Origin: a virus
Lineage: Duplodnaviria > Heunggongvirae > Uroviricota > Caudoviricetes
Length of the DNA stretch: 19,014 nt
Virus record (IMG/VR): IMGVR_UViG_2645727905_000013
Span: 1-19,014 of that record
Direction: 5' to 3' (one strand)
How positions within the stretch are numbered: the stretch's first letter is position 1; every line of letters starts with the position of its first letter. Under the pieces are notes generated by a model, which saw only the letters and a program-made list of their open reading frames with translations, was not told the DNA's origin and ran no database searches. Shown here piece by piece: positions 1,860 to 19,014 of this stretch. The position numbers were made by a program, and so were the translations under genes.

Positions 1860-1874
1860 ATAAACTCCGTACAT

Positions 1875-1896
1875 AAAAAATCCCACCGGAGTGGGA
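1875..1896 (-). terminator. Possible weak intrinsic terminator/attenuator between tape-measure and DNA-circulation genes
   Basis: On the minus strand: 6-bp stem tcccac/gtggga with a 4-nt loop, followed immediately by a T6 run. Confidence 0.3.
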
Positions 1897-1919
1897 CTCA
1901 TTAACAGATTAATTTTTCA

Positions 1920-2717
1920 TTACCTGCCAAAGCGCGTATAGCCAACATCATGGCTGACATCAAAACCGCTGGATCGCGTTTCCATAACCCGCATACCCGG
2001 AGGCGAATTCACAAAAGAGACCTTGATCTCACCATCAACTTTTGGCGCAGAAGCTTTGTTAATCATGAAGGGGGTCGGGCCTGTGACATCGGAGGCGTTG
2101 TTTGACTGAGCCGGATCTACCGCCGGATAAGGTGTGTATCCCCGCGCCGGTATTCCCGTCCCATAAGCATCATAAGCACCCGCGCCCCACTGCGCAGAGT
2201 TAATGGCATCGACCGTGTCACCGGAACTGTCGGTAAACCACTCAATAATTGGCTTCAGCTTGTCCCACATATCCTGAAACCACTTAACAACCGGCCCCCA
2301 GTTATTGATCACCATCCCCAGCGGCGACCAGGCAAAAACTTTCTTAAGGAGTTCCCAGCCGGCCTCAAAATAAGGACCAATGGTTTCCCAGAGTTTCTTA
2401 AAATAAGGTCCGACAACATCCCAGTTAGTGATAATTAATCCCGCAGCCAGGGCTATCGCCGTCGCAATCATGCCAATCGGCGTCATCGACATGATCCTGC
2501 TGACAATACTGATGGCACCGCCAACGCCCATCAATCCCAGTTTCAGAATCGCAAGACCGGCAGCAAGCCCGACGACGCCGCGAATAACCCGGGGATTTTC
2601 ATCCGCAAACTTCGTGAATTTCTCCCCCAACTCCCCCAGCCATTGCGTGATATTTTTAGCGTCACCAGAAAATGCGCCGCCAATAGCTGCAAGACCGTTA
2701 GTTGCGGTCCCCGTCAT
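1920..2717 (-). CDS. Tail tape measure protein, C-terminal segment (downstream of in-frame TAG)
   Basis: 265-aa ORF with a long Gly/Ala-rich hydrophobic stretch typical of tape-measure C-terminal regions. It is in the same frame as ORF 2724..3623, separated only by TAG (2724-2726) plus two codons. Confidence 0.55.
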   Translation of the reverse strand: MTGTATNGLAAIGGAFSGDAKNITQWLGELGEKFTKFADENPRVIRGVVGLAAGLAILKLGLMGVGGAISIVSRIMSMTPIGMIATAIALAAGLIITNWDVVGPYFKKLWETIGPYFEAGWELLKKVFAWSPLGMVINNWGPVVKWFQDMWDKLKPIIEWFTDSSGDTVDAINSAQWGAGAYDAYGTGIPARGYTPYPAVDPAQSNNASDVTGPTPFMINKASAPKVDGEIKVSFVNSPPGMRVMETRSSGFDVSHDVGYTRFGR

Positions 2718-2723
2718 TGCCTC

Positions 2724-3623
2724 CTACAGGTTGGACAGCGTACCAAGCTGTGCCTGAACACGTTTATTCAGGCTGGCCTGTTTATTCATCTTCTGCTGGA
2801 TCTGATCGTAACCATCCTTCCCTTTATCGATCAGAGCATTGACCACCTGAAGGGTTTCGGCATCATCACCAAATATTGCCTTAAGTACACCTGTTCGCTT
2901 AACGTCGGTCAGTTTTCGCAGCTTTGCCAGTTGCCTGAACATGTTATCAAGACCGCCAAAACTCCCTTTGCCGTCAGTAAAATCGAGCTGCACTCCGAGT
3001 TTCTGGCGGGCCATAACTTTATTAACGTCCCTGATTTTCTTAACGCTTAATCCGGACTGGATAACTTTTCGCAGGGCATTACCTGCCGACTCCCCGTTCA
3101 TCCCCATCTGATCCATCATGACGCTGATGGGGGCAAGGCTCTGTGCAGCCTGAAGACCATCCTTGTTCACCATCTTCAGAACAGAACTGGTTTTAGTGAA
3201 GAAGGACAACATGTTGGTATCGTCAACGCCCAGATAAAACGCCTTCTGGATAGTGTCGAACAGCCCCATCATGTCTTCTGACGCCGTTCCGGTAGCATCC
3301 TGCATCTTTGCAGCAAACTCAGCAGCCGCTTCCGGTGTTTTTTTCAGTTGTACCGCAAGATAGGCTGTCGCTTTACCCACACCACCCAGAATGTTTTCTG
3401 CCGGGATCCCCTGACGCACCAGCATCTGCATCATGTTCTGGAAATCAGCCGTTGTACCGGGTAGCTGGTTACCCAGGCCAATAGCCAGTTTATTGATGTC
3501 CTGAAAGCGCTTTCCGACCTCACCGTTCGCATCCATCATGGCAACTTTCAGCCCGGTATCCATTTCCGCATAAAACAACGGAACCAGCGTATTCGACGGA
3601 ATGGTGTTAAAGCTTATCGTCAT
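2724..3623 (-). CDS. Tail tape measure protein, N-terminal segment (ends at in-frame amber codon)
   Basis: 299-aa alpha-helical, Gln/Lys/Ala-rich ORF located upstream of the DNA-circulation gene as in Mu-type tails. Minus-strand read across the junction is ctg tag gag gca atg. Confidence 0.55.
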   Translation of the reverse strand: MTISFNTIPSNTLVPLFYAEMDTGLKVAMMDANGEVGKRFQDINKLAIGLGNQLPGTTADFQNMMQMLVRQGIPAENILGGVGKATAYLAVQLKKTPEAAAEFAAKMQDATGTASEDMMGLFDTIQKAFYLGVDDTNMLSFFTKTSSVLKMVNKDGLQAAQSLAPISVMMDQMGMNGESAGNALRKVIQSGLSVKKIRDVNKVMARQKLGVQLDFTDGKGSFGGLDNMFRQLAKLRKLTDVKRTGVLKAIFGDDAETLQVVNALIDKGKDGYDQIQQKMNKQASLNKRVQAQLGTLSNL

Positions 3624-3785
3624 CGGTATTCACCTTTTTATTCACGCGCCGGATATCACCCGCTGCTTCACGGCGCAGCCAGTAGTTGTTCTCGTCAACA
3701 TTTCGCCCTTCGGCGGGCAAAAGGTCGCCGCGGGCAGGGTCAGGAACTGACCGCCCTTTAACAGGTTTGACAAACATGAGGATCC

Positions 3786-4139
3786 TCAGGAAGGAAGGGT
3801 TATTTCGGTGTGATGTTCGATATCGCCGTCAGGCCCGTTACCGGGCTCGAGATAATCAACATCAATCGCCAGCGTTTGCAGTTCATCCAGACTGTTCAGA
3901 TCATCCTGCTGGCGGGTATCGTCTTCGGTCAGCTCGCTGATGATCGAAAAATCGAACTGATAAATCAGCTCATGACGATTCAGATCCAGCAGCGTGCCGC
4001 CGTCATAGGTAATCGGGTTACCGCACGCTTCCGGGTTCCAGCCCAGCAGAGCCTTAAAGAGCATCTGCCGGATATCCGTTCCTTCTGACCATGCCACCAT
4101 ATCCAGGAAAGCTTTACGCTGGGAATTTAGTATCTGCAT
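3786..4139 (-). CDS. Endolysin remnant: lambda R-type N-terminus (about 22 aa) fused to unrelated acidic sequence
   Basis: MQILNSQRKAFLDMVAWSEGTD closely matches the recalled lambda R N-terminus MVEINNQRKAFLDMLAWSEGTD; the remainder does not resemble R. The gene sits immediately downstream of the holin, as R does. Confidence 0.4.
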   Translation of the reverse strand: MQILNSQRKAFLDMVAWSEGTDIRQMLFKALLGWNPEACGNPITYDGGTLLDLNRHELIYQFDFSIISELTEDDTRQQDDLNSLDELQTLAIDVDYLEPGNGPDGDIEHHTEITLPS

Positions 4140-4142
4140 AAA

Positions 4143-4469
4143 TTACTCCTTAGAGCCACCAAACTTGTTACCGATCACTCTCATTGCAGCCCCACGAATT
4201 GCATCGACACCAATCAGCCCAACACCGCCACCAATGGCAACAGAAAGAGATTTAGGCCATCCGACATACTCAAGAGCGGATGCAAAAGTCAGCGTCAGAG
4301 CACCACAGAGCAAAATCTCGAGCGTTTTTCGCTTCCACCCACCACCACCGCCAAAATAGGCAATGCGCAATCCAGCCATAACAATCGACATAATCACTGC
4401 GCCAAGAGGCGTATCTCCACGCCACCAGCTCTGGAACAACTCCAGCCAGGTATTTGGGTTATGAGGCAT
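4143..4469 (-). CDS. Holin, lambda S family (class I)
   Basis: 108 aa with hydrophobic helices and a charged C-terminus. Segment LRIAYFGGGGGWKRKTLEILLCGALTL parallels lambda S [24 protein letters not shown]. It lies directly upstream of the R-like ORF. Confidence 0.65.
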   Translation of the reverse strand: MPHNPNTWLELFQSWWRGDTPLGAVIMSIVMAGLRIAYFGGGGGWKRKTLEILLCGALTLTFASALEYVGWPKSLSVAIGGGVGLIGVDAIRGAAMRVIGNKFGGSKE

Positions 4470-4766: not shown

Positions 4767-5609
4767 ATGTTAGATACACTATCGTTCACTGAACGTGACG
4801 AGTTCCAACGAAGAAACATCGCTGAAAATATCATCAAGTTGCTAAAACCAGAGGCAGACATTTCACCACTGGTAATAGATGGCGCATGGGGAACAGGGAA
4901 ATCAGAATTTAGTATCAAACTGAAAAATCTCATTATTGAGCAAGAACCCGAATCTAAAGTTGTTTATATTGATGCCTTTAAAGGGGATCATGCAGAATCT
5001 CCATTACTTCTCATAACCTCTGCAATTGCCAGCATTTTGCCTGAGGAAGAAAAACAACACTTCATTAAGAGGTCTCTTCCTGCAATTCGATTTGGTTTAA
5101 AAACTGTACTAAAAGCTGGTGCAGGTTGGTTTTTACGACAGGAGGCTAGTGAAGTTGCCGAAGAATTCCAAGATGCGATGAAGAAAGCAAGCAATGCAGC
5201 AATAGATGGGACTATTGAAAGTTTGCTTGAAGACCATATGGAATCAGAGAAAAACATAAATTCACTTAAATCTTGCATCGAAAGTATTTCAGAAAATCAA
5301 AAGATAGTAATTATAATTGATGAATTAGATCGATGTAAGCCGAGTTTTTCAACAAATGTCATTGAAACAATAAAACACATTTTTGACATCAATAATGTCT
5401 TTTTTATTTTAGTTACAAACACAGAACAATTAAGAGCATCGATAAATCATATTTATGGTTATAGTATTAACTCACAAAAGTATCTTGACAAGTTTATAAA
5501 ATATACCATCACGCTTCCAGATACATGTTTGATAAATGGTCACGACGTATGTAAAGCCTCTGTTATATATTGGAATTACCTTGTAGAAAAAAACAAGATC
5601 ATTAAATGA
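4767..5609 (+). CDS. KAP-family P-loop NTPase, N-terminal part (Walker A and B present); gene appears frameshifted
   Basis: Walker A VIDGAWGTGKSEF (GxWGxGKS type) and Walker B IVIIIDELDRC (DELDRC) are the KAP NTPase signatures. AT-rich composition. Encoded on the opposite strand between Q and the lysis genes. Confidence 0.7.
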   Translation: MLDTLSFTERDEFQRRNIAENIIKLLKPEADISPLVIDGAWGTGKSEFSIKLKNLIIEQEPESKVVYIDAFKGDHAESPLLLITSAIASILPEEEKQHFIKRSLPAIRFGLKTVLKAGAGWFLRQEASEVAEEFQDAMKKASNAAIDGTIESLLEDHMESEKNINSLKSCIESISENQKIVIIIDELDRCKPSFSTNVIETIKHIFDINNVFFILVTNTEQLRASINHIYGYSINSQKYLDKFIKYTITLPDTCLINGHDVCKASVIYWNYLVEKNKIIK

Positions 5610-5757: not shown

Positions 5758-6099
5758 ATGATCTTTGTCGTAGCTGTCTTCATACATTGCTTTGGTGACA
5801 AGGAAAAACTAAAACACGAAATTACCGCTGAATCTATATCTTATTTAGCAGACCTGCTTAAAATAAAAGAGATACCTTATTCTTATGAGATGAGTTCGAA
5901 AATCCCTAAAATATCAATTGTATTCTTTGGAATAATTAAAGACAGTATTACTCTTAATGAGCGATTTGCTCCTAAAAGTGATGAAGAACTAAAAAGATTC
6001 ACCAAAGTTTATACTGATTATGACCACCTAAATTTTTGGAGTACTACACCCAGAGAGTTATTGATAAAATATATCAATCAAATGTCATTCATTCAGTAA
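5758..6099 (+). CDS. Probable C-terminal continuation of the KAP NTPase gene in the +1 frame
   Basis: This frame is open from 5587 (just after a TAG at 5584-5586) through 6099, overlapping the end of the upstream ORF. Deleting one A from the A7 run (5587-5593) fuses the two ORFs into about 443 aa. The first ATG is only at 5758. Confidence 0.4.
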   Translation: MIFVVAVFIHCFGDKEKLKHEITAESISYLADLLKIKEIPYSYEMSSKIPKISIVFFGIIKDSITLNERFAPKSDEELKRFTKVYTDYDHLNFWSTTPRELLIKYINQMSFIQ

Positions 6100-6512: not shown

Positions 6513-7508
6513 TCAGGCCAGTACGCCAATTGCCAGCGCACGATCGATAAAACGAAATATCAGCTCCAGCTGAGAGCCATACTTCTCTTCAAATGCCACG
6601 GTATCCGCATGCAGCTCGTCGTGATGCTTTCTGCACAAAGGCAACACAAAGAGGTCATGCGCTTTTGTACCCATTCCACCCTGACCGTGGCCTATCAGAT
6701 GGTGGGGATCATCAGCAGGCTTTCCACAACATGCACACGGCTGTGTCTTAACCCAGCGCGTGTACTTTTCATTAACCCAGCGGCGGCTTTTTGGGCGTAA
6801 CATAAAAGACTCCGGCGACTCCGGATCCACTTTCAGCGCCAGCACCTTTTTCGCTTTATCCAGGATGATGCTGGTGGCAGGAACCGAAGGCACAAGGTCA
6901 CTTTCCCGGGTGACAGACGGCACAACAGGTTTCGGTAATCTCAGCGCCTTACGGGCTACGCTTTCAGGTAAGGCATCCGCCAGGTCATTACGAATCAGCC
7001 ACCAGCACAGTTCCGGCATTGTCACGGCATGGTTATCATCAAAATCGAGATCCCGACGGACTACAGACAACACCCAACGGGCACAGTTATCCGTTGCCAT
7101 TGATTCCAGCCGCTCCGTGAACTGATCACGTAACTGATTATCGCAGTGCCAGCACAGACGGATTGCGCCCGGCGCGTGTCGCATTGTGGTCATGTTCTCG
7201 CTGTGCCAGTCGGAATGAGGCCACTGGCAGCCTTTTTCACGAAGTAACCAGCTTTCAAGACATTCCACCCCACCAGCACGACGAATCACTGCCTCATTAC
7301 GGAACACGGCCCGAACGGCAGGATCATCCGCCAGCGGTTGTGATGCCGCCGGAACGGCACCACTGGCGAAAGATGAATAACGTTCCGGCTCAGGCTCCAG
7401 CAGGACACGCCCCTGCATAAACAGGGGCATCAGCTCTGAACCTGGCCTGAACAATACGATCCCCATACGCGGGGCAATTTCAGGGGTCAGTAGCGCTCTC
7501 ACGGTCAC
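6513..7508 (-). CDS. DUF968-like phage protein with C-terminal HNH/zinc-finger-like motif (YdfU-like)
   Basis: C-terminus CACCGKPADDPHHLIGHGQGG...CRKHHDELH has an HNH-type Cys/His pattern. It sits immediately upstream of Q, as ydfU does relative to quuQ in the Qin prophage (recalled). Confidence 0.5.
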   Translation of the reverse strand: MTVRALLTPEIAPRMGIVLFRPGSELMPLFMQGRVLLEPEPERYSSFASGAVPAASQPLADDPAVRAVFRNEAVIRRAGGVECLESWLLREKGCQWPHSDWHSENMTTMRHAPGAIRLCWHCDNQLRDQFTERLESMATDNCARWVLSVVRRDLDFDDNHAVTMPELCWWLIRNDLADALPESVARKALRLPKPVVPSVTRESDLVPSVPATSIILDKAKKVLALKVDPESPESFMLRPKSRRWVNEKYTRWVKTQPCACCGKPADDPHHLIGHGQGGMGTKAHDLFVLPLCRKHHDELHADTVAFEEKYGSQLELIFRFIDRALAIGVLA

Positions 7509-8728: not shown

Positions 8729-9051
8729 ACTTTCAGGCCCCTCTCATGTAACCAGTGGGCTGCACGCAGCCTGGCGTTTTCCTCACCGGCAAGCAGTGAG
8801 CGGATAATCCCGACCGCCTCGCTGTCGTCGTCCTTCACCGCGGTATGAAGCGTTATCCCCCGGGCCACGCCACGCTTTATCGTGATGACGCCTTTTTTCT
8901 CCAGCGCACGAAGATGCTCCACCGCTGCATTCACCGAACGGTATCCCAGCATGGTTGCCACCTCCTGATTGGTTGGTGGGAAGCCACGTTCTTTCTGATA
9001 AGAAATCAGCATATCCAGCACCTGCTGCTGGCATTGAGTTAACGTCGTCAT
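8725..9051 (-). CDS. LexA N-terminal DNA-binding-domain-only protein (no S24 peptidase domain)
   Basis: MTTLTQCQQQVLDMLISYQKERGFPPTNQEVATMLGYRSVNAAVEHLRALEKKGVITIKRGVARGITL aligns with the LexA N-terminus ([68 protein letters not shown]). It retains an AGE linker motif but ends about 25 aa later. Start (ATG at 9049-9051) overlaps the upstream stop (TAATG). Confidence 0.65.
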   Translation of the reverse strand: MTTLTQCQQQVLDMLISYQKERGFPPTNQEVATMLGYRSVNAAVEHLRALEKKGVITIKRGVARGITLHTAVKDDDSEAVGIIRSLLAGEENARLRAAHWLHERGLKV

Positions 9052-9545
9052 TAAGCCCCCACGTAATTCCCTGACAGATACCACTCTTCACCCGATGCAG
9101 CGCGCTTGCTGCTTTTCCGTAAGCACCGCTCACGACGCGCCAGAAAATTGTTTCGTTCTGGCTGGGAGTGGCTTTCACGGAATGCCGCCATCCACACGGT
9201 TGCAGCACGACGAAATAAGCCCCTGGACTCCAGTTCTTCCGCCTGGCGGGCCAGGCACAAAATCACCCGCGGGTCGTTAGTGCCGACATAGAAATTGCGC
9301 ACAGGTCTGGTTTCACGAACTGGTTGCCGTTCCGCCTCCGGAGATATCTTTGTCTGGCGCGGGAAATGTCTGCGTGTATCCCCTTCACAACGGTGAGCCA
9401 CACGCCCACTCTGACGTAACTTGCTTGCTGACTGCAGAACGCGCTGCCGTGAGTAACCTGCAAAAGCATCAGCAATGTCTCCGGAAGTACCCCCTGGATG
9501 GGCTTCAATGAATTTCTGAACTTCATTCAAAAGACTCATAATCAC
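9051..9545 (-). CDS. Hypothetical regulator; C-terminal region PerC/ANR-like
   Basis: 164-aa ORF whose ATG overlaps the stop of the replication gene (ATGA). C-terminal ARQAEELESRGLFRRAATVWMAAF...RRERCL resembles the recalled PerC/Pch motif GLWRRAAxRW. The N-terminal half may be a winged helix. Confidence 0.4.
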   Translation of the reverse strand: MIMSLLNEVQKFIEAHPGGTSGDIADAFAGYSRQRVLQSASKLRQSGRVAHRCEGDTRRHFPRQTKISPEAERQPVRETRPVRNFYVGTNDPRVILCLARQAEELESRGLFRRAATVWMAAFRESHSQPERNNFLARRERCLRKSSKRAASGEEWYLSGNYVGA

Positions 9546-10483
9546 CCCCTGAATCCTGCCGGGATCTGGCTGTAGTCCACATTGTCGTAACTGGCTTTGA
9601 AGTACGGGTCTTCACGTTTTTCTGTGTGCGTGCTGACGGACGGCGATAAGCGCAGGGAAAGCTCATCCCATTTTTCCCGCAACTTCGACGGGCTGAGCAC
9701 GTTACGGCACCAGAACGGATCGCGGCTGACGCGGCTGTACATCTCGCAGATTTGTTTGTGAGTACGACCATCCTGCACACACATCAGGCGAATTTCGTTT
9801 GCCCAGGCTGTCCAGTTCGGTTCTTTGGGACGAATCACCTCGCCGTCACATTCGGCGGCCTGCTCGTACAGGGCGATGATTTTTTTCCAGAGCCACTGTG
9901 CGCAGGTCAAATCATCCTGCGTTCCCCACTGACGCTTTTTAGGGCTGAATACAACCGCATCAGGATGGCGAGTTAAAAAATCCTGTTCATCCGTCTGCGT
10001 GTCCGGTTGCGAAGCGTCCGGACGAGAAGTTTTTTTATCTGACGGATCATGTTTTGATTTTACTGACGGATCCCCGCCAGATTCTGACGGGTGAAAACCC
10101 GCTTTTTTGCCAGATTTCGACGCATCAAATTTTGACGGGTCAGATTTTGATGCGTCAGATTTTGACGGGTCAGAATCTGACAGTTGAGAAAATGCCGCTG
10201 CCTGAAGCTTCGCAACGTTAAGCTGATAAACATTCGACGCATTGCGGTTACCCTGGCGACGCGCCTTACGCGTTAACCAGCCTTCTGCTTCCAGCCGTGC
10301 GATAGCCGTTCTGACGGTACTCATCCCCGCGCCAATCTGGCGGGCAATGGTTTCAATTGATGGCCAGCACACACCTTCGTCATTACTGAAATCAGCCAGG
10401 CGGGCCATAATTGCCACGCTGGATAACTTCATGCCTGATGCAGCGCAACCATCCCATACATAGCCGGTTAATTTAGTACTCAT
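9542..10483 (-). CDS. Phage replication initiation protein (lambda O-like role), N-terminal wHTH, internal repeat linker
   Basis: N-terminal wHTH-like segment SIETIARQIGAGMSTVRTAIARLEAEGWL. A repetitive linker (SDSDPSKSDASKSDPSKFDASKSG) is encoded by tandem 15-bp DNA repeats. Located downstream of cro and the cII-position genes. Confidence 0.6.
   Translation of the reverse strand: MSTKLTGYVWDGCAASGMKLSSVAIMARLADFSNDEGVCWPSIETIARQIGAGMSTVRTAIARLEAEGWLTRKARRQGNRNASNVYQLNVAKLQAAAFSQLSDSDPSKSDASKSDPSKFDASKSGKKAGFHPSESGGDPSVKSKHDPSDKKTSRPDASQPDTQTDEQDFLTRHPDAVVFSPKKRQWGTQDDLTCAQWLWKKIIALYEQAAECDGEVIRPKEPNWTAWANEIRLMCVQDGRTHKQICEMYSRVSRDPFWCRNVLSPSKLREKWDELSLRLSPSVSTHTEKREDPYFKASYDNVDYSQIPAGFRG
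10038..10185. repeat. Iteron-like tandem direct repeats (candidate replication origin) inside the replication initiator gene
   Basis: Four or more tandem 15-bp units (caaattttgacgggt, cagattttgatgcgt, cagattttgacgggt, cagaatctgacagtt) plus degenerate upstream copies, with an adjacent T-rich tract (agtttttttatc, 10029-10040). Confidence 0.55.
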
Positions 10484-10652
10484 GACCGACCTCTATTTCC
10501 CTGAATTTACGACGAAACTGTTCGAGCGGACTGAAGCATTCATGCTCATAACCTTCGCGGAGGTAGATAACCCGTTGTGTTTCCGGCTCCCAACGAATGA
10601 CTCTGACGGGCACTCCGTAGTGATCTTTGAACCAGCGGTTAACTTGTCGCAA
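10473..10652 (-). CDS. Small ORF (59 aa, TTG start) overlapping the 3' end of ORF 10493..10831; alternatively the displaced C-terminus of that gene
   Basis: AAGGAG SD 8 nt upstream of TTG; translation [59 protein letters not shown] is protein-like. Its stop overlaps the start region of the replication gene. Below the 60-aa ORF-track cutoff. Confidence 0.3.
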
Positions 10653-10831
10653 AGGACTGTCTCCTTCTGCCGGTTGAAATCACCCACAGCCCACTCTGCA
10701 AAGCTGTGGGTTACAATTTCCCTGTCACCTGGTACATTCACTGCATAGCAATATTCCACCTTCGCTTTTCCACCCGGTACAGGAAGCGCAATCAGTTGCG
10801 AGCGACGGTAGTGTGTTGTTAAACTGTTCAT
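10493..10831 (-). CDS. Hypothetical protein (C-terminal third looks non-protein-like; possible frameshift)
   Basis: ATG overlaps the stop of the upstream gene (ATGA at 10828-10831), which supports the start. A second frame with a strong SD carries protein-like sequence over its 3' part. Confidence 0.35.
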
Positions 10832-11442
10832 GCGTTAGTTTCTCCACAACCAGAAGCAATCGACGCCACGACGCCCGGAGCTGCACACTCGCGGGCGTCA
10901 TTACTTTCTGAAATGCAAAAAATTTTGTAGACAAGTGCTGCATGCTCCTGCAGCTTCGAAATTGAGAGATACAGCTCGTCGTTAATTGCTGTCTTCTCAT
11001 GCGGTTCCACTACACCGTCTTCAATTGCTGAACGAATCTGTTTTGAATAACTGCCGATCTGTTCAATGACTTCCAGCAGGCGCTGGTTAATATCGGCGTT
11101 GTCCACATCCTCGACGTCAGGAAGAGACACAAAGACGCCATTTGCAGACTGCGCCACAGCGTCAGCAATGAAGTGAGTTCCACCAGCACGTTGCAAAATC
11201 ATTGCCCATCCCAGCGGGAAAATCTGATCGCCATCTGCACGAAGGCGGTTAAATAATGCGTTCTCTGTTACATCCAGCCAGTCAGCTGCTTCAGCGTAAC
11301 CACCCGGCAACGCTGCGATAGTTTTTCTGACAGCTTTCACGTACCACTCAGGCTGTTTTTCTACTTTCCAGTGATGCTTACCCACGGTTAGCCTCATCGT
11401 TCTGTGGTTTCTGTTAATCGATTTATCCATTAGATTTTTCAT
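10828..11442 (-). CDS. Hypothetical early protein in the cII/YdaT position downstream of cro
   Basis: Long ORF directly following cro. Start uncertain: ATGs at 11440-11442 and 11428-11430 overlap or abut the cro stop; the ORF-track start at 11499 would overlap cro by 77 nt. Function not recognised. Confidence 0.4.
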
Positions 11443-11623
11443 AAAGCTCAGGTTTAAATGGCAACCGTCCGCAAGTTCTATATGCAGCTTCTGCTGCACG
11501 TCCTTTTGGAATTAACTGGCCCGGACGGTTTCGCCACTGATAAACGGCTTCAGTTGTTATGCCGAAAAAAGCAGCAACTTTCTCAATACTGCCGAAGTAG
11601 CTTTCGATATCGTCAGTTGTCAT
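11423..11623 (-). CDS. cro: Cro-like HTH regulator
   Basis: 66-aa HTH protein (GITTEAVYQWRNR) transcribed divergently from the CI-like repressor, with a GGAGGG SD upstream. Confidence 0.7.
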   Translation of the reverse strand: MTTDDIESYFGSIEKVAAFFGITTEAVYQWRNRPGQLIPKGRAAEAAYRTCGRLPFKPELYEKSNG

Positions 11624-11720
11624 ACGCCCTCCAAACTAAGTTTTATTAGATGCTAATTACAAATCTATCTTTGGTCAACAAAAACTAAGATTACTTAGTA
11701 ATTAAAGAAATGGTGCTCCT
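11624..11720. promoter_or_regulatory. cI-cro intergenic operator/promoter region (OR-like)
   Basis: 97-bp AT-rich divergent intergenic region containing the palindrome ACTAAGattaCTTAGT (11684-11699) and a further ACTAAG copy (11635-11640). A possible minus-strand promoter is TTGACC, 17 nt, TAGCAT. Confidence 0.5.
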
Positions 11721-12347
11721 ATGGAAACGGTTGGTCAGCGTATAAAAGCTCTGAGAAGAGTAACCAGAACGTCCCAGAAAGAATTGGGTAAATTTTGTGG
11801 AGTAAGCGACGTTGCTGTGGGGTACTGGGAGAAAGACATCAATACCCCTGGTGGGGAGGCACTTTCGAAATTAGCGAAGTTCTTCAATACGTCAATAGAT
11901 TACATTCTTTATGGTGCTGAGTTTGAAGGCAAACTCGTCACAAACATGCGCAGAGTTCCTGTAATATCGTGGGTTCAGGCTGGGCAGTTTACTGAGTGCA
12001 GGGCAGCAGAAGTGTTTAGTGAAGTGGACAAGTGGGTAGATACATCATTAAAGATTGGTGATAACTCATTTGCATTAGAGGTTAAAGGTGACTCCATGAC
12101 TAACCCTAATGGCCTCCCAACAATACCAGAAGGCGCAACAGTGATTGTAGATCCAGATGCAGAACCTCGTCATGGAAAAATAGTCATCGCTCGACTTGAT
12201 GGAACAAACGAAGCTACAGTAAAAAAATTAGTCATCGATGGCCCTCAAAAGTTTTTAGTGCCATTAAATCCTCGGTATCCCAACATCCCTATCAATGGTA
12301 ATTGCCTTATCATTGGTGTAGTCAAAGGAGTTCAATACGAACTCTAA
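11721..12347 (+). CDS. cI: CI-like prophage repressor (HTH-XRE N-domain plus S24 LexA-type autopeptidase C-domain)
   Basis: N-terminal HTH (QKELGKFCGVSDVAVGYWEKD), a putative Ala-Gly cleavage site (VQAGQF), catalytic Ser in GDSM and Lys in TVKKL. Confidence 0.85.
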   Translation: METVGQRIKALRRVTRTSQKELGKFCGVSDVAVGYWEKDINTPGGEALSKLAKFFNTSIDYILYGAEFEGKLVTNMRRVPVISWVQAGQFTECRAAEVFSEVDKWVDTSLKIGDNSFALEVKGDSMTNPNGLPTIPEGATVIVDPDAEPRHGKIVIARLDGTNEATVKKLVIDGPQKFLVPLNPRYPNIPINGNCLIIGVVKGVQYEL

Positions 12348-12357
12348 GACCTCTCTT

Positions 12358-12430
12358 TTCTAACTAAGGCACCGAACTAAGAAAAGTTTGGTGTTTTCTC
12401 TTGCCATAATAACTAAGTTAAGTTAGATTT
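12358..12430 (+). promoter_or_regulatory. Candidate OL/pL-like region downstream of cI (repeated ACTAAG motifs; possible promoter)
   Basis: ACTAAG at 12363-12368, 12377-12382 and 12413-12418, the same hexamer as in the cI-cro operators. Possible promoter TTGCCA (12401-12406), 17 nt, TAGATT (12424-12429). Confidence 0.25.
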
Positions 12431-12534
12431 TATGTCAAAGATAACGAACAGGCAGGACGCGCACGAAGTAGCCCGCCCGGTACGTACGAAGACCGGGATG
12501 ATTCGTTAGCGGATGATTTCAGTGGAGAGAATAG

Positions 12535-12843
12535 ATGAATGAGCAGGATTTGAAGCATGTGATCGCATTGTTGCTGGAAGACGCTAAACGTTTGCAGCAG
12601 ATAGAGCCAAATGCAGGCACTGAGGCCCGTATTTTGTTAGCAAAACAGGCATTAAAGACTTGCGGGGCGCAAGACCCTGATCGAACCAAGTTCATGAATT
12701 TCATGGCTAACACGATCACCCCACTGCCATGCAATGGAGAGAGGGTTAGCCGTGTTTATCACGACACAATGGTTAAGGCATTAAGAATCGAGCTTGATGG
12801 GCTTAGGCGTAAGATCGTGATGAACAAAATCGTTGCCAACTAA
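12535..12843 (+). CDS. Hypothetical immunity-region protein
   Basis: 102-aa ORF with a GGAGAG SD at appropriate spacing; first gene downstream of cI. No family recognised. Confidence 0.4.
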   Translation: MNEQDLKHVIALLLEDAKRLQQIEPNAGTEARILLAKQALKTCGAQDPDRTKFMNFMANTITPLPCNGERVSRVYHDTMVKALRIELDGLRRKIVMNKIVAN

Positions 12844-13122
12844 GGAAGCAGACGGAAGTAAGCATGCGCTTTGTTCAAATTTGCAGACAAATATATTTGC
12901 GTCAACACCAGCACTGTTAGCAATGGAAAAAGTTTGATCAAGGATTTGTTGGCAGTTCATTGTGCTTTTGAGGATATATCCCTCTGGAATCAGTCTGCAG
13001 CAGCTATCGTCAGACTCTTTGATTGTTTTCTGGTACAGAAAGTTAAGCATTAATTCTTCAAATTTTTTGGTCTGTTCGGCTGTTGCTTCAAACAGACGAA
13101 CGTGAACATAAAACTGGTTCAT
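12781..13122 (-). CDS. Hypothetical protein encoded antisense to the early-left operon (immunity-region moron candidate)
   Basis: ORF with an AGGAAA SD 5 nt upstream of the ATG at 13120-13122 (protein MNQFYVHVRLFEATAEQ...). Relatively AT-rich. Convergent with 12535..12843, overlapping it by 63 nt. Confidence 0.35.
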   Translation of the reverse strand: MNQFYVHVRLFEATAEQTKKFEELMLNFLYQKTIKESDDSCCRLIPEGYILKSTMNCQQILDQTFSIANSAGVDANIFVCKFEQSACLLPSASLVGNDFVHHDLTPKPIKLDS

Positions 13123-13401
13123 TAGATTTCCTTGCTGGCTGTGTGAGAACTCCAGCATACCACCGAGCCTGAAGTGGTGAAAAGACAGGCAATAGTTTCA
13201 TTGCTGTGTGTAGTCTTGGCGGTACCAGCTTGTACCCTTGCTTCCGGCTGGTACCGTCCTTTTTACAAAACAGAGAAGAGTATCACCGGACGACGGGCTC
13301 ATAACCCAATCCATCCGGGCGGCTGCCACCGCAGGTGTTCTTCTCTGTTTTGTGGAGAAACCAACCGACCTTGCAGGGTCGATATGATGAGGAGCAGCAA
13401 A

Positions 13402-13764
13402 ATGGCTAGCGAACGCAGTACTGATGTGCAGGCATTTATCGGGGAGCTGGACGGCGGCATATTTGAAACCAAAATCGGCGCTGTTCTCAGTGAAGTCGCT
13501 TCCGGTGTGATGAACACAAAAACCAAAGGGAAAGTCTCACTCAACCTGGAAATCGAACCATTTGATGAGAACCGTGTGAAAATCAAACACAAACTCTCAT
13601 ATGTTCGCCCGACTAACCGCGGGAAAATTTCCGAAGAAGACACCACCGAAACGCCGATGTATGTCAATCGCGGTGGTCGCCTGACTATTCTGCAGGAAGA
13701 CCAGGGACAATTACTGACTCTTGCCGGTGAACCTGACGGAAAACTCCGCGCAGCAGGTCGTTAA
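13402..13764 (+). CDS. Hypothetical phage protein (possibly YfdP-like)
   Basis: Strong GAGGAG SD 8 nt upstream of the ATG at 13402. The ORF-track N-terminal extension from 13174 is Cys/Arg-rich and implausible. Confidence 0.45.
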   Translation: MASERSTDVQAFIGELDGGIFETKIGAVLSEVASGVMNTKTKGKVSLNLEIEPFDENRVKIKHKLSYVRPTNRGKISEEDTTETPMYVNRGGRLTILQEDQGQLLTLAGEPDGKLRAAGR

Positions 13765-13829
13765 TATCGTTTTTAATAAACTGATTATTTATCTCATCAC
13801 TGAATATCTTTATATAGTGAGGACTTATT

Positions 13830-14654
13830 ATGTCTCAGAACTTAGACGCAACCGCAATTAATCAAATCCATGCCCTTATTTCTGCTCAGGGTGTTAATGA
13901 AATTATCAGTAAGATTGGTGCCGATGCTGTGGCATTGCCTGAGAATTTCCGCATTCATGATCTGGAAAAATTTAATTTAAATCGCTTCCGTTTCCGAGGT
14001 GCGCTTTCCACTGCAAGCATCGATGACTTTACCCGTTATTCTAAAGATCTTGCAGATGAAGGCACCCGCTGCTTTATCGATGCTGATAATATGCGTGCCA
14101 TCAGTGTGCTTAACCTGGGCACTATTGATGAACCAGGTCACGCAGATAACACCGCCACTCTCAAACTGAAAAAGGCAGCACCGTTCTCTGCTCTGTTGTC
14201 TGTTAACGGCGAGCGTAACTCCCAGAAGTCACTGGCAGAATGGATTGAAGACTGGGCCGACTACCTTGTGGGCTTTGATGCTAATGGTGACGCTATTCAG
14301 GCAACAAAAGCGGCTGCGGCTGTCCGTAAAATCACGATTGAAGCAAACCAGACCGCTGATTTTGAAGATAATGACTTCAGCGGCAAACGCTCCCTGATGG
14401 AGTCTGTCGAAGCGAAGACCAAAGATATTATGCCAGTGGCATTTGAATTTAAATGCGTTCCGTTTGAAGGTCTGAAAGAACGTCCGTTTAAATTACGTCT
14501 CAGCATTATCACTGGCGATCGTCCTGTACTGGTTCTGCGCATTATTCAGCTGGAAGCAGTGCAGGAAGAAATGGCTAACGAATTTCGTGATCTGCTTGTT
14601 GAGAAATTCAAAGACAGCAAAGTAGAAACCTTTATTGGTACTTTCACCGCCTGA
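13830..14654 (+). CDS. Hypothetical phage protein, 274 aa (YfdQ-like by size and context)
   Basis: Well-formed ORF with a GAGGA SD. Size and position next to an HD-domain gene match the yfdQ-yfdR arrangement recalled from the E. coli CPS-53 prophage. Confidence 0.5.
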
Positions 14655-14666
14655 TTTCATTACTGC

Positions 14667-14688
14667 AAATGCCCCTGCGGGGGCATTT
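14667..14688 (+). terminator. Strong hairpin (possible partial terminator) between the 274-aa gene and the HD-domain gene
   Basis: Perfect 9-bp stem aaatgcccc/ggggcattt with loop tgcg; the downstream T-tract is short (ttt). Confidence 0.3.
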
Positions 14689-14782
14689 ATGGAGACGTAA
14701 TTAACTCAATAATCGCCGGATGGTAAGGGCTTCTTTTTACCAAAATTCAGTGCGGTGCAGCGCAAATAACGTGGAGAACAAA

Positions 14783-15331
14783 ATGTCATTTATTAAAACT
14801 TTTTCCGGGAAGCATTTTTATTATGACAAGATAAATAAAGACGACATCGTGATTAACGATATCGCGGTTTCCCTTTCAAATATCTGTCGCTTTGCAGGAC
14901 ATCTTTCACACTTCTACAGTGTCGCCCAGCATGCGGTGCTTTGCAGCCAGCTGGTGCCACAGGAATTTGCTTTTGAAGCATTAATGCATGATGCAACAGA
15001 AGCTTATTGCCAGGACATCCCCGCTCCACTGAAACACCTTCTTCCTGACTATAAACGGATGGAAGAAAAAATAGATGCCGTAATCCGTGAGAAATACGGG
15101 TTACCCCCGGTTATGAGCACGCCCGTGAAATATGCCGATCTCATCATGCTGGCAACCGAACGCCGCGATCTCGGGCTTGATGATGGCTCTTTCTGGCCTG
15201 TACTGGAAGGCATCCCGGCAACAGAGATGTTCAACGTGATTCCACTGGCACCGGGCCATGCCTACGGGATGTTTATGGAACGCTTTAAAGAGCTACATAA
15301 GATACATAAACAATCCAGACAGCGAAATTAA
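14783..15331 (+). CDS. HD-domain phosphohydrolase (YfdR-like 5'-deoxynucleotidase family)
   Basis: His...HD pattern (RFAGH, AQHAV, LMHDATEAY). Start placed at the ATG at 14783 with a GGAGAA SD; about 182 aa. Confidence 0.65.
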   Translation: MSFIKTFSGKHFYYDKINKDDIVINDIAVSLSNICRFAGHLSHFYSVAQHAVLCSQLVPQEFAFEALMHDATEAYCQDIPAPLKHLLPDYKRMEEKIDAVIREKYGLPPVMSTPVKYADLIMLATERRDLGLDDGSFWPVLEGIPATEMFNVIPLAPGHAYGMFMERFKELHKIHKQSRQRN

Positions 15332-15359
15332 CTAGTGAAATAGTTTTGTAGCAAAAGAA

Positions 15360-15620
15360 ATGAGGTTATCAAAAATGCTTCAAATGCTGACACTTGAGGA
15401 ATGGGCTACGGAAAAATACAGAAGTAATCCTCCAAGTGTGTCCACATTGCGTCGTTATGCTAAGCAGAATTTATTTTGTCCACCGGCAATGAAACAAGGT
15501 CGACTATGGCGAGTGCGTGAGGACGCAGAGTTAGTTGGGGAATTAGTTACTCCTGTCATCAAGAAAAGTGATTCTATTATTCTACAAAGGATTTTAAGTA
15601 ATGGCAGCCAGACCACGTAA
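15360..15620 (+). CDS. xis: Excisionase (lambda Xis-like)
   Basis: LTLEEWATEKYRSNPPSVSTLRRYAKQNLFCPPAMKQGRLWRV parallels lambda Xis (YLTLQEWNARQRRPRSLETVRRWVRECRIFPPPVKDGREYLF). Overlaps the integrase start by 20 nt. Start may be the internal ATG at 15375 or 15384. Confidence 0.7.
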   Translation: MRLSKMLQMLTLEEWATEKYRSNPPSVSTLRRYAKQNLFCPPAMKQGRLWRVREDAELVGELVTPVIKKSDSIILQRILSNGSQTT

Positions 15621-16728
15621 AAATAATGTTTCAGTCCCGAACTTGTATCCGCTCTATAGCAGAAAAGTAAATAAAGTCTATTGGCGATATAAGCATCCAG
15701 TGACCGGGAAGTTTCATTCTTTGGGCACAAACGAAGCTGAAGCCATTGCTATTGCCACTGAGGCCAATACACGCCTGGCTGAGCAAAGAACCCGGCAGAT
15801 TCTGGCTATCAGTGACAGGATCGCAACCAGCAAAGGAAAAGCGATAACAACATCAACATGGTTAGACCGCTACCAGGCCATCCAGGATGACAGGCTGAAA
15901 AGTGGTGATATAAGACTCAACACCTATAAGCAGAAAGCCAAACCAGTATCCTTGCTCAGGGAACGAGCAGGAATGAAATTGATTTCAGCTGTTGATGTCA
16001 GGGATATAGCACAATTGCTTGACGAGTATATCGCTGCCGGGCAACCGAGAATGGCCCAAGTTGTAAGGTCTGTATTGATTGATGTGTTTAAGGAAGCACA
16101 GCACTATGGCGAAGTTCCGCCAGGGTATAACCCTGCTCTTGCGACGAAGCAACCCAGAAGGAAAATTACCCGTCAACGCCTCAGCCTGGAAGAATGGCAA
16201 AAAATCTTTGATATCGCAGATGCCAGTCATCGTTATATGGGAAATGCCATGCTGTTAGCACTGGTTACTGGCCAGCGGTTAGGTGATATTTCGCGTATGA
16301 AATTTAGCGATATTTGGGATGATCATCTTCACGTCATTCAGGAAAAGACCGGGAGCAAAATCGCCATCCCGCTTTCTCTTCGCCTCAATGCGATTAACTG
16401 GAGTTTACGCGATGTAGTATCCCGCTGCCGTGACTATGCAGTCAGCCCATACCTTGTACATTTTTTCCGTACGACTTCACAGGCTGAACGTGGCGCACAG
16501 GTTAAATCCAATACATTGACGATGAATTTCAGTAAAGCGAGGGATTTTGCAGGAATTGACTGGGGTGATGGCTCACCCGCAACATTCCATGAACAAAGGT
16601 CTTTATCTGAACGTCTGTACAAAGAACAGGGGTTAGACACACAAAAACTACTTGGTCATAAAACGCAACAACAAACCGATCGTTATCATGACGATCGCGG
16701 CAAAGGATGGAGCAAAGTTGCGTTGTGA
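15601..16728 (+). CDS. int: Tyrosine site-specific integrase, lambda Int family
   Basis: 375 aa. N-terminal arm-binding region (VPNLYPLYSRK...HPVTGKFHSLG) and C-terminal catalytic region (TFHEQRSLSERLYKEQ...LLGHKTQQQTDRYHDDRG) parallel lambda Int (PPNLYIRNNG..., TFHELRSLSARLYEKQ...LLGHKSDTMASQYRDDRG). Confidence 0.9.
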   Translation: MAARPRKNNVSVPNLYPLYSRKVNKVYWRYKHPVTGKFHSLGTNEAEAIAIATEANTRLAEQRTRQILAISDRIATSKGKAITTSTWLDRYQAIQDDRLKSGDIRLNTYKQKAKPVSLLRERAGMKLISAVDVRDIAQLLDEYIAAGQPRMAQVVRSVLIDVFKEAQHYGEVPPGYNPALATKQPRRKITRQRLSLEEWQKIFDIADASHRYMGNAMLLALVTGQRLGDISRMKFSDIWDDHLHVIQEKTGSKIAIPLSLRLNAINWSLRDVVSRCRDYAVSPYLVHFFRTTSQAERGAQVKSNTLTMNFSKARDFAGIDWGDGSPATFHEQRSLSERLYKEQGLDTQKLLGHKTQQQTDRYHDDRGKGWSKVAL

Positions 16729-16976
16729 AAATTTAAGCGTCCCAACGCCACCTTGAACTTCTCACCACACATGAAAAAGAACCAAACTGTTCGCTTTGAG
16801 CGAAAGGCGGACGTCATGAGACGCGTATAACATATATTGTAAATATAAGGTTCGATTATTTGCTTTCTTAACGTAAAATAAGTATGGAATGGTCTTGCTT
16901 ACGTAAGGTCTTTTAAGTTATATCTAGTAGTTATGATTTTAAATAGGTCTTTCGTGCTAATAAATAAGGTGGTTGC
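16729..16976. other. Probable attachment-site / prophage boundary region (core not identified)
   Basis: Non-coding AT-rich segment immediately downstream of int with a marked compositional shift. Contains ttacgtaa-type palindromes (16870-16910). Confidence 0.3.
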
Positions 16977-17897
16977 ATGTTACATAAAAAAACAACACAA
17001 GAAAATGTAGCTTTTGGACTTGCTGTACTTAACTACTATCTTCGTTTCAATTCTAAAGCGAATTTACAGGACGCTAATGTAAGTTCAGAGGAGTTGATAA
17101 GTAATTTAGTAAATATTCTGAATGATAGTGATTTTATCTGCACATCGGAAATCTCAGCAAATTATCCAGGAATAGATGCTATCGATAAAGTAAATAGACT
17201 CGGGCTCCAGATAACACATACAAAAACCAATTCAAAAATTAATAAAACAATAGATAGAATTCGCGAAAATAAAGTTAACAATGAAATTGGTGTGCTATAT
17301 TTTTTCATTACATCAAGAAAGCAGAAGAAATACACTATCACAGCACAATGCCCAAATCTAAACGTCACAACAAATAACATATTGGACTTTGATTCCCTAG
17401 CTGAACTGCTTTCGAAAAATCAGAATAAACTGGCTCAAGCAGAAGCAGAACTTATTAAAGCAATGCCTCGTCTCTACCAAGATGGAAAAGCACGACATGA
17501 GGCTATGCTTAATAGTATTCTTGTGGCCAGAAATGAATTAGATAGAAGAGTATTCACTGCTGATAAAATTTTAGAAGAACCAGAGGAAATGCTTTTATCC
17601 CTCAGGGAAATGAGAATAGCCATACAAAAAGCAGGAATAATGAATGAAGCTAATTCTGTTGTATCTACTTCATTTAAAAAAATAATTAAAATTATTAATG
17701 ATGCAGAGGGTCAAATTGCAAAAAAACATACCAGTGGATATAAAAAATATAAGGCCAGAATATTTCCCTCGTGGGATTATACTGATAGAGATGATTGTTT
17801 AAATATTTTAATGGGGATAAGAAAAGATGTTTTAGACCAAATAGATATTATTGACATTGAGATCAATAAACTGAAAGGGTTTCTTGGAATACGGTAA
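16977..17897 (+). CDS. Hypothetical protein with SMEK-like N-terminal domain and helical C-terminal half (candidate defence-associated)
   Basis: 306-aa AT-rich ORF. N-terminal region (...SANYPGIDAIDKVNRLGLQITHTKTNSKINKTIDRI...GVLYFFITS) resembles, from memory, the SMEK-type domain pattern (AIDLGD...IAFQVTS). C-terminal half is predicted helical/coiled-coil. SD AAGGTGG upstream. Confidence 0.45.
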   Translation: MLHKKTTQENVAFGLAVLNYYLRFNSKANLQDANVSSEELISNLVNILNDSDFICTSEISANYPGIDAIDKVNRLGLQITHTKTNSKINKTIDRIRENKVNNEIGVLYFFITSRKQKKYTITAQCPNLNVTTNNILDFDSLAELLSKNQNKLAQAEAELIKAMPRLYQDGKARHEAMLNSILVARNELDRRVFTADKILEEPEEMLLSLREMRIAIQKAGIMNEANSVVSTSFKKIIKIINDAEGQIAKKHTSGYKKYKARIFPSWDYTDRDDCLNILMGIRKDVLDQIDIIDIEINKLKGFLGIR

Positions 17898-18330: not shown

Positions 18331-19014
18331 CTAAAAATCATTTGCCGATTGGATAGCGTTATATGGATTGATTGATGGGGTGCTGCCAGTCACTATTCCA
18401 ATTAAACTACCAATTACAAAAGGCTCTTTGTTATCAATTATAATATAGGGCCCGCCAGAGCATCCAGGATAGCTATTATGATTCACCATTAGACGAGATG
18501 TAATACACCCCCCATTTGAATGTTTAGTACAATTCTTATTGAAAGGTTGAGAAACTATACCTTGCATTTGATTAAGTTGAGACTTTCCTAAAGGAAACCC
18601 TAATCCGAAGGCAGCAGTTTTTTGTGTAATTGAGGTTTTTTTAAAGAAATTTGATATAGGATGGATATCATCTCTATTTAATACTAATTCTGCGCTATCT
18701 ACAAAAGGGTCAGGGTTGTTATAGTTATTTACATCATTACAGTCGTTGAGAATAAAATCGACTAAGATAGGCGTTGATTTTACTAGTCCGTGATGGTTTT
18801 CAAATTTGACGAATAATTGGACGGTATTATTAGTTGGATATATCCGGTTAAGAGCGTTAGTAACAACATGAGCTGCGGTAAGCATTTTCTTACACTCACC
18901 ATCGTCAAAACCAAATGCAGTGGCTTCGAATGGGTTTTGAAAATTAGAATGAGCACTTACATAGATTTTGCATACATAGTCATCAAAGTGAAAACTGCTA
19001 AAAAATTTTAGCAC
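18331..19014 (-). CDS. Trypsin-like (S1/chymotrypsin-fold) serine peptidase, N-terminus probably beyond window edge
   Basis: Catalytic triad motifs present: LTAAHVV (His), VDSAELVL (Asp), PGCSGGP (Ser). The ORF runs to the window end at 19014 with no ATG in frame. AT-rich. Confidence 0.6.
   Translation of the reverse strand: MLKFFSSFHFDDYVCKIYVSAHSNFQNPFEATAFGFDDGECKKMLTAAHVVTNALNRIYPTNNTVQLFVKFENHHGLVKSTPILVDFILNDCNDVNNYNNPDPFVDSAELVLNRDDIHPISNFFKKTSITQKTAAFGLGFPLGKSQLNQMQGIVSQPFNKNCTKHSNGGCITSRLMVNHNSYPGCSGGPYIIIDNKEPFVIGSLIGIVTGSTPSINPYNAIQSANDF

Follow-up and report, generated by a model that had tools for sequence, protein, structure and literature searches.

The 19,014-nucleotide stretch of phage DNA analysed here (IMG/VR record IMGVR_UViG_2645727905_000013, Caudoviricetes), hereafter called the window, in whose numbering all coordinates are given, harbours on its plus strand three successive genes which are virtually certain to represent the yfdP-yfdQ-yfdR trio of the Escherichia coli K-12 prophage CPS-53:

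13402-13764, plus strand: yfdP, encoding 120 amino acids (aa), the upstream partner of yfdQ
13830-14654, plus strand: yfdQ, encoding 274 aa, a member of the DUF2303 family
14783-15331, plus strand: yfdR, encoding 182 aa, a predicted HD-superfamily metal-dependent phosphohydrolase of the 5'-deoxynucleotidase type

Aligned by BLASTP with the CPS-53 proteins of K-12 (comparison genes taken from NC_000913.3), YfdP is identical at 117 of 120 positions (98%, E 9e-89), YfdQ at 270 of 274 (99%, E 0) and YfdR at 169 of 176 (96%, E 2e-132), and the genes follow each other in the same order. A preliminary description of the window had likened the genes to this trio by their sizes and order, which the alignment bears out; the lengths given there for the second and the third product are correct, while the first product comprises 120 residues instead of about 118. 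The proteins fall into the PHROG families 204 (YfdP), 210 (YfdQ) and 318 (YfdR). Shine-Dalgarno sequences are found 7 nt 5' of the start codons of both yfdP (GAGGAG) and yfdQ (GAGGA), these two genes being separated by a spacer of 65 nt. The reading frame of yfdR is open from 14720, yet the evidence favours the ATG at 14783 as its start, with GGAG at a distance of 6 nt on the 5' side. Of 5426 complete E. coli genomes, 3031 contain matches of 95-99% identity to a 2.3-kb block with the trio, far more than chance would give; the coverage is at least 80% in 2442 genomes (about 45% of the 5426), where the genes are annotated as yfdP, yfdQ, yfdR and xisE. Compared with two E. coli copies, the three genes show dN/dS values of 0.03 to 0.15; all of them are intact and under purifying selection. 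The trio is thus a widespread accessory module in the early-left operon of lambdoid prophages of the SfV/e14/CPS-53 type. Since both the block and its location have already been described in the literature and in annotation, the block itself is an ordinary finding and offers nothing new.

Immediately downstream of yfdR the window continues with the two genes of a lambda-type excision and integration module:

15360-15620, plus strand: xis, lambda-like excisionase of the e14 xisE type (Pfam Exc, E 1.3e-11; PHROG 629, excisionase)
15601-16728, plus strand: int, lambda-family tyrosine integrase of the e14 intE type (Arm-DNA-bind_1, E 2e-37; Phage_integrase, E 1.1e-17)

The excisionase thus belongs to the Xis-like family, the tyrosine integrase behind it carries at its N-terminus the arm-binding domain known from lambda, and the pair shares 88.5% nucleotide identity with xisE-intE of the K-12 prophage e14, so that the junction to lambda-type xis-int stated in the preliminary description is correct. 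Its assignment of the trio to an early-left operon is supported by the position of the genes. The order in the window is cro on the minus strand, then the repressor and ymfJ (both plus), ymfI (minus), a leader, yfdP, yfdQ, yfdR, xis and int. The minus strand carries cro, ymfL, an O-like replication gene, yfdN and genes for RusA, KilA-N, DUF968 and antiterminator proteins, while the plus strand carries an S24/HTH repressor gene, a ymfJ-like gene and, beyond ymfI, the trio with xis and int. Lying on the repressor strand between immunity region and xis-int, the trio occupies the position of lambda's early-left operon, an arrangement which is retained in about 60 species-level loci and is consistent with the location of the trio in lambdoid phages described in PMC12315714. 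A promoter scan 5' of yfdP yielded nothing convincing: a weak site resembling a promoter lies at 12401-12429, and such sites are less frequent than in shuffled sequences; neither an N homologue nor a nut site was recognised in the window. We would like to note that ymfI (12781-13158, minus strand) and the ymfJ-like gene (12535-12843, plus strand) share 63 nt at the 3' end of the latter; as ymfI is inserted between repressor and cassette, early-left transcription would pass through it in antisense direction. The slot between repressor and leader varies among genera.

The distribution of the trio was followed in a scan of one genome per species, which returned 71 loci; a scan of viral contigs yielded only E. 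coli-type loci of 99-100% identity, and the species-level genomes were therefore used to assess diversity. In 69 of 70 usable loci yfdP is located immediately upstream of yfdQ, so that the two genes constitute an obligate pair. Of 67 loci, 54 (about 80%) have yfdR further downstream, directly adjacent in 48, and the order of replication gene, ymfL, cro and repressor, then yfdP, yfdQ and yfdR, and then xis and int recurs throughout Enterobacterales. In 24 loci a gene for an Rv2179c-like 3'-5' exonuclease is inserted between yfdR and xis, and in two loci a gene for a single-stranded DNA-binding protein (SSB) directly follows yfdQ. Outside this prophage family the yfdP-yfdQ pair (P-Q) occurs without yfdR, each time within a recombination or single-stranded DNA module, in three unrelated lineages: P-Q-ORF36-ERF-RecE-like exonuclease-HNH-SSB in the Xanthomonas podophage CP2, ERF-YqaJ exonuclease-DnaQ-like exonuclease-P-Q-SSB in the Vibrio podophage 34E29.1, and recT-exo-ORF18-P-Q-ORF15-Ea22 in the Stx2a phage phiON-2011. 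In 34E29.1 a protein with a Tad2-like (Thoeris anti-defence 2) domain is encoded at 6712-7221, three genes past the YfdP-YfdQ-SSB group.

That YfdQ belongs to DUF2303, a family for which the preliminary description had suggested a profile search, is supported by Pfam PF10065, whose profile positions 2-269 match residues 7-272 with 305.2 bits at a cut-off of 26.6. The family comprises 1759 clusters at 50% identity, nearly all of about 270 aa. YfdP matches PHROG 204 at E 3.9e-49, and all of its close homologues carry a PF27127 match. Window YfdQ furthermore matches, at E 7.6e-44, the Protein Data Bank (PDB) entry 9o7m, "YfdQ Protein", the sequence of which was traced to Xanthomonas phages of the CP2/MET23-P3 type. 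As this homologue is present in 36 chains, YfdQ is probably a large homo-oligomer. Our literature search found no paper for 9o7m, and a Foldseek search of a library reaching to April 2026 did not return this entry. AlphaFold2 models of YfdP and YfdQ produced no convincing structural relative and, specifically, no fold similarity to annealing proteins of the Rad52, RecT or Erf type. K-12 transcription data treat yfdPQ as one unit (PMC9181523), and a sensitivity of yfdQ mutants to methyl methanesulfonate (MMS) and H2O2 is cited in PMC4776307. Judged from the gene neighbourhoods and from 9o7m, YfdP and YfdQ may be accessory factors that work on intermediates of replication or recombination or counter a host nuclease, rather than substituting for a recombinase; we consider this possible, though short of probable.

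The third protein shows the clear HD motif that had been pointed out in the preliminary description. Residues H50, H69-D70, E73, D78 and D119 align with the YfbR motif HDASEVLTGD, E73 and D78 corresponding to E72 and D77 of YfbR, so that YfdR retains all metal-binding and catalytic residues of the HD type. The profile evidence for the HD domain is divided, as the Pfam scores stay just under their cut-offs while PHROG 318 (E 9e-108, family name "deoxyribonucleoside 5' monophosphate phosphatase"), PDB entry 2gz4 (Atu1052; E 2.5e-13, residues 18-173) and the motif agree with it. Atu1052 and YfbR (PDB 2paq) have the HD core and the motif H...HD..E....D...D in common with YfdR. The resemblance to YfbR, the 5'-deoxynucleotidase of E. 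coli, is otherwise remote: the equivalog model NF003009 of NCBIfam scores 21.1 bits at a cut-off of 122, and phmmer aligns the two proteins at E 0.59. By sequence comparison YfdR is thus a distant, paralogue-like relative of YfbR and no orthologue. The K-12 protein is named 5'-deoxynucleotidase in RefSeq. The nucleotide affinity of K-12 YfdR is reported to be much below that of YfbR (PMC4776307, citing Zimmerman et al. 2008). Noguchi and Katayama found that K-12 YfdR, with which YfdR of the window shares 96% identity, binds directly to domain I of DnaA in a Phe46-dependent manner (PMC4776307). In the same study multicopy yfdQ-yfdR together with yfdS or yfdT inhibited initiation at oriC, yfdP being dispensable for this phenotype, while deletion of yfdQRST caused no replication phenotype; hydroxyurea resistance upon overexpression is also reported (PMC4776307). 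Going by its motif and its relatives, YfdR is a member of the HD superfamily, most likely acting as a low-affinity 2'-deoxynucleoside 5'-monophosphate (dNMP) phosphohydrolase and as a DnaA binder.

BLASTN of the window against the K-12 loci reveals that the cassette has sharp mosaic boundaries. CPS-53 matches the window at 9048-10250 and at 13383-15291, the latter stretch with 97% nucleotide identity and with order and spacing of the three genes unchanged. In K-12 one stretch directly adjoins the other, and CPS-53 has thus arisen from the window arrangement by a deletion, with its junction at 10250|13383. The segment lost (10251-13382) comprises the replication gene in its N-terminal part, ymfL, cro, the repressor gene, ymfJ, ymfI and nearly the entire leader. 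Consequently, yfdP of K-12 lies directly next to yfdO, the truncated replication gene with its iterons, whereas yfdP of the window is preceded by the leader. The right breakpoint of CPS-53 falls inside yfdR at about codon 170, giving rise to two alternative YfdR tails: the tail reads KELHKIHKQS if yfdR is joined to xisE, as in the window, and NDLSELRKCA if it is joined to yfdS. At 15319-15331 the TGA which usually terminates yfdR of the xisE-joined type, as in strain RM7190, is changed to AGA, so that window YfdR is extended by four residues (RQRN). CPS-53 goes on to yfdS, yfdT and torI, none of which is present in the window, where e14-type xis-int follows directly, and its integrase gene intS is located at the opposite end, at argW, while int of the window lies beside the cassette.

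The K-12 prophage e14 matches the window at 12443-13191, 13202-13391 and 15356-16812 and lacks exactly 13392-15355, that is, the yfdPQR cassette, its leader being joined directly to xisE. With the order ymfL-croE-cohE-ymfJ-ymfI-ymfH-xisE-intE it shares ymfL, ymfJ and ymfI with the window; its leader, 84.7% identical to that of the window, is annotated as the open reading frame (ORF) ymfH. Hence, the "ymfH" ORF of e14 is the leader of a lost yfdPQR cassette. A second oddity of K-12 concerns four 11-bp repeats with 15-bp spacing at 10125-10180 (TCAAATTTTGA, twice TCAGATTTTGA, and TCAGATTCTGA), which lie within the O-like replication gene (9542-10483, minus strand) and look like origin iterons. 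Identical sequences have been reported as "SrsR boxes" in the yfdO/yfdP spacer of K-12 (PMC9181523); they adjoin yfdP there because the CPS-53 deletion moved these origin-type iterons next to it. The undeleted arrangement in the window accounts for both peculiarities.

Between yfdQ and yfdR two hairpins can be delineated:

14667-14688, plus strand: hairpin HP1, AAATGCCCC-TGCG-GGGGCATTT, beginning 13 nt past the yfdQ stop codon and followed by a weak T tract
14713-14726, plus strand: hairpin HP2, consensus TCGCC-loop-GGCGA, with one mismatch in the window

HP1 is 100% paired in 38 of 38 sequences, with compensatory changes in four of its nine pairs; for HP2, compensatory changes are found in two pairs, and 91.5% of cells are paired. 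Among 500 column shuffles none reaches the observed values, and controls slid along the alignment show about 50% pairing. The yfdQ-yfdR spacer is conserved beyond expectation, and its comparison with known RNA families gave chance-level matches only. Proteus, Morganella and Hahella possess unrelated stems with stronger T-runs at the place of HP1. Given the weak T tract in E. coli and the stronger T-runs at the same place elsewhere, HP1 would fit a leaky terminator or attenuator favouring YfdP and YfdQ over yfdR-xis-int, a role consistent with yfdPQ being handled as a transcription unit in K-12 (PMC9181523).

The region 5' of yfdP contains further predicted RNA elements:

13200-13265, plus strand: candidate DicF-like small RNA (sRNA), composed of a 5' seed TGCTGTGTGTAGTCTT (13202-13217), a GC-rich hairpin (13218-13258) and a T-run (13260-13264)
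13260-13381, plus strand: structured leader, with small helices inside a long closing stem formed by 13260-13284 and 13334-13358
13352-13361, plus strand: conserved leader motif GTGGAGAAAC, followed by a short hairpin (13366-13381) and by the Shine-Dalgarno sequence and ATG of yfdP

The predicted fold of 13200-13404 has an energy of -88.6 kcal/mol (z -6.17), and none of 200 shuffled sequences is as stable. The strands of the long stem vary among genera yet remain complementary. The 16-nt seed TGCTGTGTGTAGTCTT is single-stranded in the leader and identical in 15 species-level loci which bear at least six different hairpin stems; the combination of seed, hairpin and T-run is found in 21 of 64 loci, the other loci having other seeds. 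A model of the sRNA detects copies in e14 and in other E. coli prophages, the one in e14 being situated inside the annotated ORF ymfH (7195-7258, minus strand, of the e14 stretch compared), and does not find dicF of K-12. This model is based on sequence only: in the MAFFT alignment of the sRNA the stems are out of register, so that RNAalifold detected no pairs, and covariation of the stems was assessed by eye and by counting different stems. No Rfam family reaches its gathering score within the window, and DicF does so neither there nor in 11 related loci: the DicF model (RF00039) scores 19.4 bits against 13205-13259 (E 0.066 in a search of 351 nt), well below its gathering score of 48.

The layout of the leader nevertheless closely resembles that of the dicF-dicB spacer of the prophage Qin, which is located at the same position in the early-left operon, past the immunity region and ahead of the next gene downstream, and likewise presents a single-stranded seed, a GC-rich hairpin, a U-run, a long closing stem, a Shine-Dalgarno sequence and an ATG. 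DicF and the window sRNA have the core TTGGCGGTAYCAG and the tail CCGCCCTTTTT in common, whereas their seeds, TTTCTGGTGACGTTT in DicF and TGCTGTGTGTAGTCTT in the window, differ. In architecture and position 13200-13265 is therefore a candidate for a DicF-like sRNA cassette, while the sub-threshold Rfam score and the failure of the new-group model to find dicF argue against membership in the DicF family. Because the Qin spacer shares this layout, the long stem of the leader may be an RNase III processing site. The beginning of the seed (13201-13207, UUGCUGU) is complementary to 13394-13400 (GCAGCAA), between Shine-Dalgarno sequence and ATG of yfdP, and is paired with it in the predicted fold; this complementarity is confined to the E. 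coli-type sequence and may be due to chance or reflect lineage-specific control in cis. Three other readings of the leader were discarded. The boxA-like TGCTCTT, which might have indicated a nut site, is one strand of a covarying stem and changes among genera, the supposed DnaA box (GTGGAGAAA) differs from the DnaA-box complement, and a small ORF (ATGTTCTG...) extends over no more than two codons before its stop in several genera.

Taken together, the window presents the cassette in its ancestral context of immunity region, leader, yfdP, yfdQ, yfdR, xis and int. Upon infection, or when the prophage is induced, transcription of the operon would pass through the structured leader with its DicF-like sRNA. 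YfdP and YfdQ would be made first, and the terminator-like hairpin after yfdQ, as far as RNA structure is a guide, would reduce read-through into yfdR-xis-int. The two proteins may jointly act on replication or recombination intermediates of phage or host DNA, as suggested by their gene neighbourhoods, and would then be accessory factors without replacing a recombinase, while YfdR, to go by the K-12 work, would hydrolyse dNMPs with low affinity and also bind domain I of DnaA. As a whole we put this mechanistic picture forward tentatively and grant it less than an even chance; combined with the firm identity of the genes, the overall explanation may be called moderately probable, which is a compromise between its two parts. 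Several points weigh against it. YfdP and YfdQ are without known biochemical function, the evidence from gene neighbourhoods is indirect, and PMC12315714 deems a role of the trio in recombination unlikely. The Pfam scores of YfdR miss the respective cut-offs (YfbR-like, 25.4 versus 25.9; HD_3, 17.2 versus 22.5). The K-12 phenotype needed YfdQ and YfdR plus YfdS or YfdT, neither of the latter two being encoded in the window, and, as its authors concede, this inhibition may be an artefact of overexpression (PMC4776307). The U tract of HP1 is poor in E. coli, which makes it a putative terminator, and the promoter of the operon was not located by the scan. Finally, the prophage in the window is defective, so that the cassette may never be expressed as part of a lytic programme in this strain.

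The preliminary description had pointed to HD-domain dNTP hydrolases of prophages, which can deplete nucleotide pools with effects on superinfecting phages or host metabolism. On this view YfdR would be a dNTP triphosphohydrolase that serves in anti-phage defence or reshapes host metabolism. The HD motif is indeed present, a weak match to PHROG 7076 (a "dATP triphosphohydrolase" family, E 1.8e-4) is confined to this motif, and prophages do carry defence genes, with defence candidates encoded elsewhere in the window. Yet YfdR comprises just 182 aa, while dNTPases of the dGTPase/SAMHD1 type are more than twice as large and contain additional domains. The families it fits best bear the names dNMP phosphatase and 5'-deoxynucleotidase, its affinity for nucleotides is reported to be low, and no PADLOC model is matched at E <= 0.01. 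Moreover, yfdR resides in an early operon of the lytic side together with xis-int and not in a cargo island expressed in the lysogen, and its deletion left the CMP yield of an engineered strain unaltered. A dNTPase is therefore a very improbable identity for YfdR, and this part of the earlier proposal is not upheld. That the trio might instead benefit the lysogen, enhancing the survival of the host under stress by damping DnaA-dependent initiation or by conferring oxidative or alkylation tolerance, would explain why its genes stay intact under purifying selection inside defective prophages (the window, CPS-53 and many in E. coli), and it would accord with the K-12 data, namely the H2O2 and MMS phenotypes, the hydroxyurea resistance on overexpression, the binding of YfdR to DnaA, and a yfdPQ mRNA which is detectable and SrsR-responsive (PMC9181523). 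The promoter context in K-12 is, however, a deletion artefact, with yfdP fused to the interior of a replication gene, and the "SrsR boxes" are ori-type iterons which in the window lie 3.2 kb away. In addition, the yfdQRST deletion has no replication phenotype in K-12, the P-Q pair is also found in strictly lytic podophages, and the terminator-bearing leader as well as the operon shared with xis-int argue for repression in the lysogen. We regard such a benefit as improbable.

It is likewise quite improbable that YfdP, YfdQ and YfdR constitute an unrecognised Rec module replacing functions of the Red or Erf type in those lambdoid phages for which neither an annealing protein nor an exonuclease is known. 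Admittedly, the cassette fills the place of exo-bet-gam in the early-left operon, where no recognisable annealing protein is encoded in this prophage family; three phage lineages without relation to each other have the P-Q pair next to genes for ERF or RecT, for exonucleases and for SSB; and deletion of yfdQ is reported to raise the sensitivity to MMS and H2O2. But the genes coexist with complete Rec modules, as in phiON-2011 (recT, exo), in CP2 and the Vibrio phage (ERF, exonucleases) and in ArgO145 (PMC12315714), which is the reason why the authors of that study consider hidden recombination proteins unlikely; they also found that the trio is not universal among phages devoid of Rec genes (PMC12315714). 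Nor do the predicted models resemble in their fold the annealing proteins of the Rad52, RecT or Erf type. More far-reaching than the preferred accessory role is the notion that everything from the leader to yfdR forms a single self-contained unit which reprograms the host at induction by means of an sRNA with a new, strongly conserved seed, an assembly of the obligate YfdP-YfdQ pair, an attenuator after yfdQ and a DnaA-titrating HD nucleotidase. In such a unit the YfdP-YfdQ assembly may be large and may either act on replication or recombination intermediates or block a host nuclease or defence. We consider this unlikely; if it were true, YfdP and YfdQ would represent a new kind of DNA-metabolism or counter-defence factor widespread among lytic as well as temperate phages.

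The loss of structural genes is evident from the comparison with an intact relative, in which genes for endolysin, terminase, portal, capsid, sheath and tube are located between the holin gene and the tape-measure gene. These lysis, head and tail genes (about 12.5 kb) are missing from window region 1-4469 (minus strand), where the holin gene (4143-4469) adjoins a tail-terminator fragment (3786-4139), followed by tape-measure fragments at 2724-3623 and 1920-2717, all on the minus strand. With structural and lysis genes lost and with its tail-terminator and tape-measure genes reduced to fragments, the prophage is defective. A KAP-family P-loop NTPase, matching PDC-S20 (E 9.5e-143), which PADLOC lists as a candidate defence system, is encoded on the plus strand at 4767-5609 and 5758-6099 within an island of about 32-36% GC. 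The two ORFs of this split gene correspond to profile positions 4-281 and 337-449, and it is probably a pseudogene, as the intact relative, a related E. coli prophage, contains a single intact ORF of 443 aa. Beyond int, the window carries cargo of 33-36% GC at 16977-17897 (plus strand) and 18331-19014 (minus strand), for which no match at megablast level was obtained in complete E. coli genomes. One of the cargo proteins has a SMEK domain (Pfam SMEK_N, E 2e-24) and a weak PADLOC match to an Aga REase-type model, while the other is a trypsin-like protease with a weak LmuA-like match. The int-proximal slot, which holds the SMEK-domain gene in the window, is taken by lit in e14 of K-12 and by a DUF262 gene in strain RM7190; it therefore appears to be a variable hot spot which is probably related to defence.

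The value of the finding lies in its pointing to open questions on YfdP and YfdQ, a pair that ranks with the most common of those in lambdoid phages whose function is unknown, including a solved structure for which our literature search found no description. The side results, i.e. the obligate P-Q pair next to recombination genes, the boundaries of the cassette, the attenuator after yfdQ and the DicF-like leader sRNA, are modestly new, and the latter two are candidate regulatory elements which are testable.

Among previously described phages, the same trio has been noted in LLS, ST64B, phiNP and ArgO145 as a "yfbR, yfdQ, yfdP" cluster of the early-left operon, in which a 5'-nucleotide phosphatase is predicted for the HD protein while the remaining genes have no known function (PMC12315714), and ORFs 29-31 of the Shigella phage SfV represent it as well (PMC4776307). 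All of these are complete phages, plaque-forming or inducible, in contrast to the prophage of the window, which has lost its lysis and head genes and part of its tail genes. YfdQ of phiNP is 58.5% identical to that of the window.

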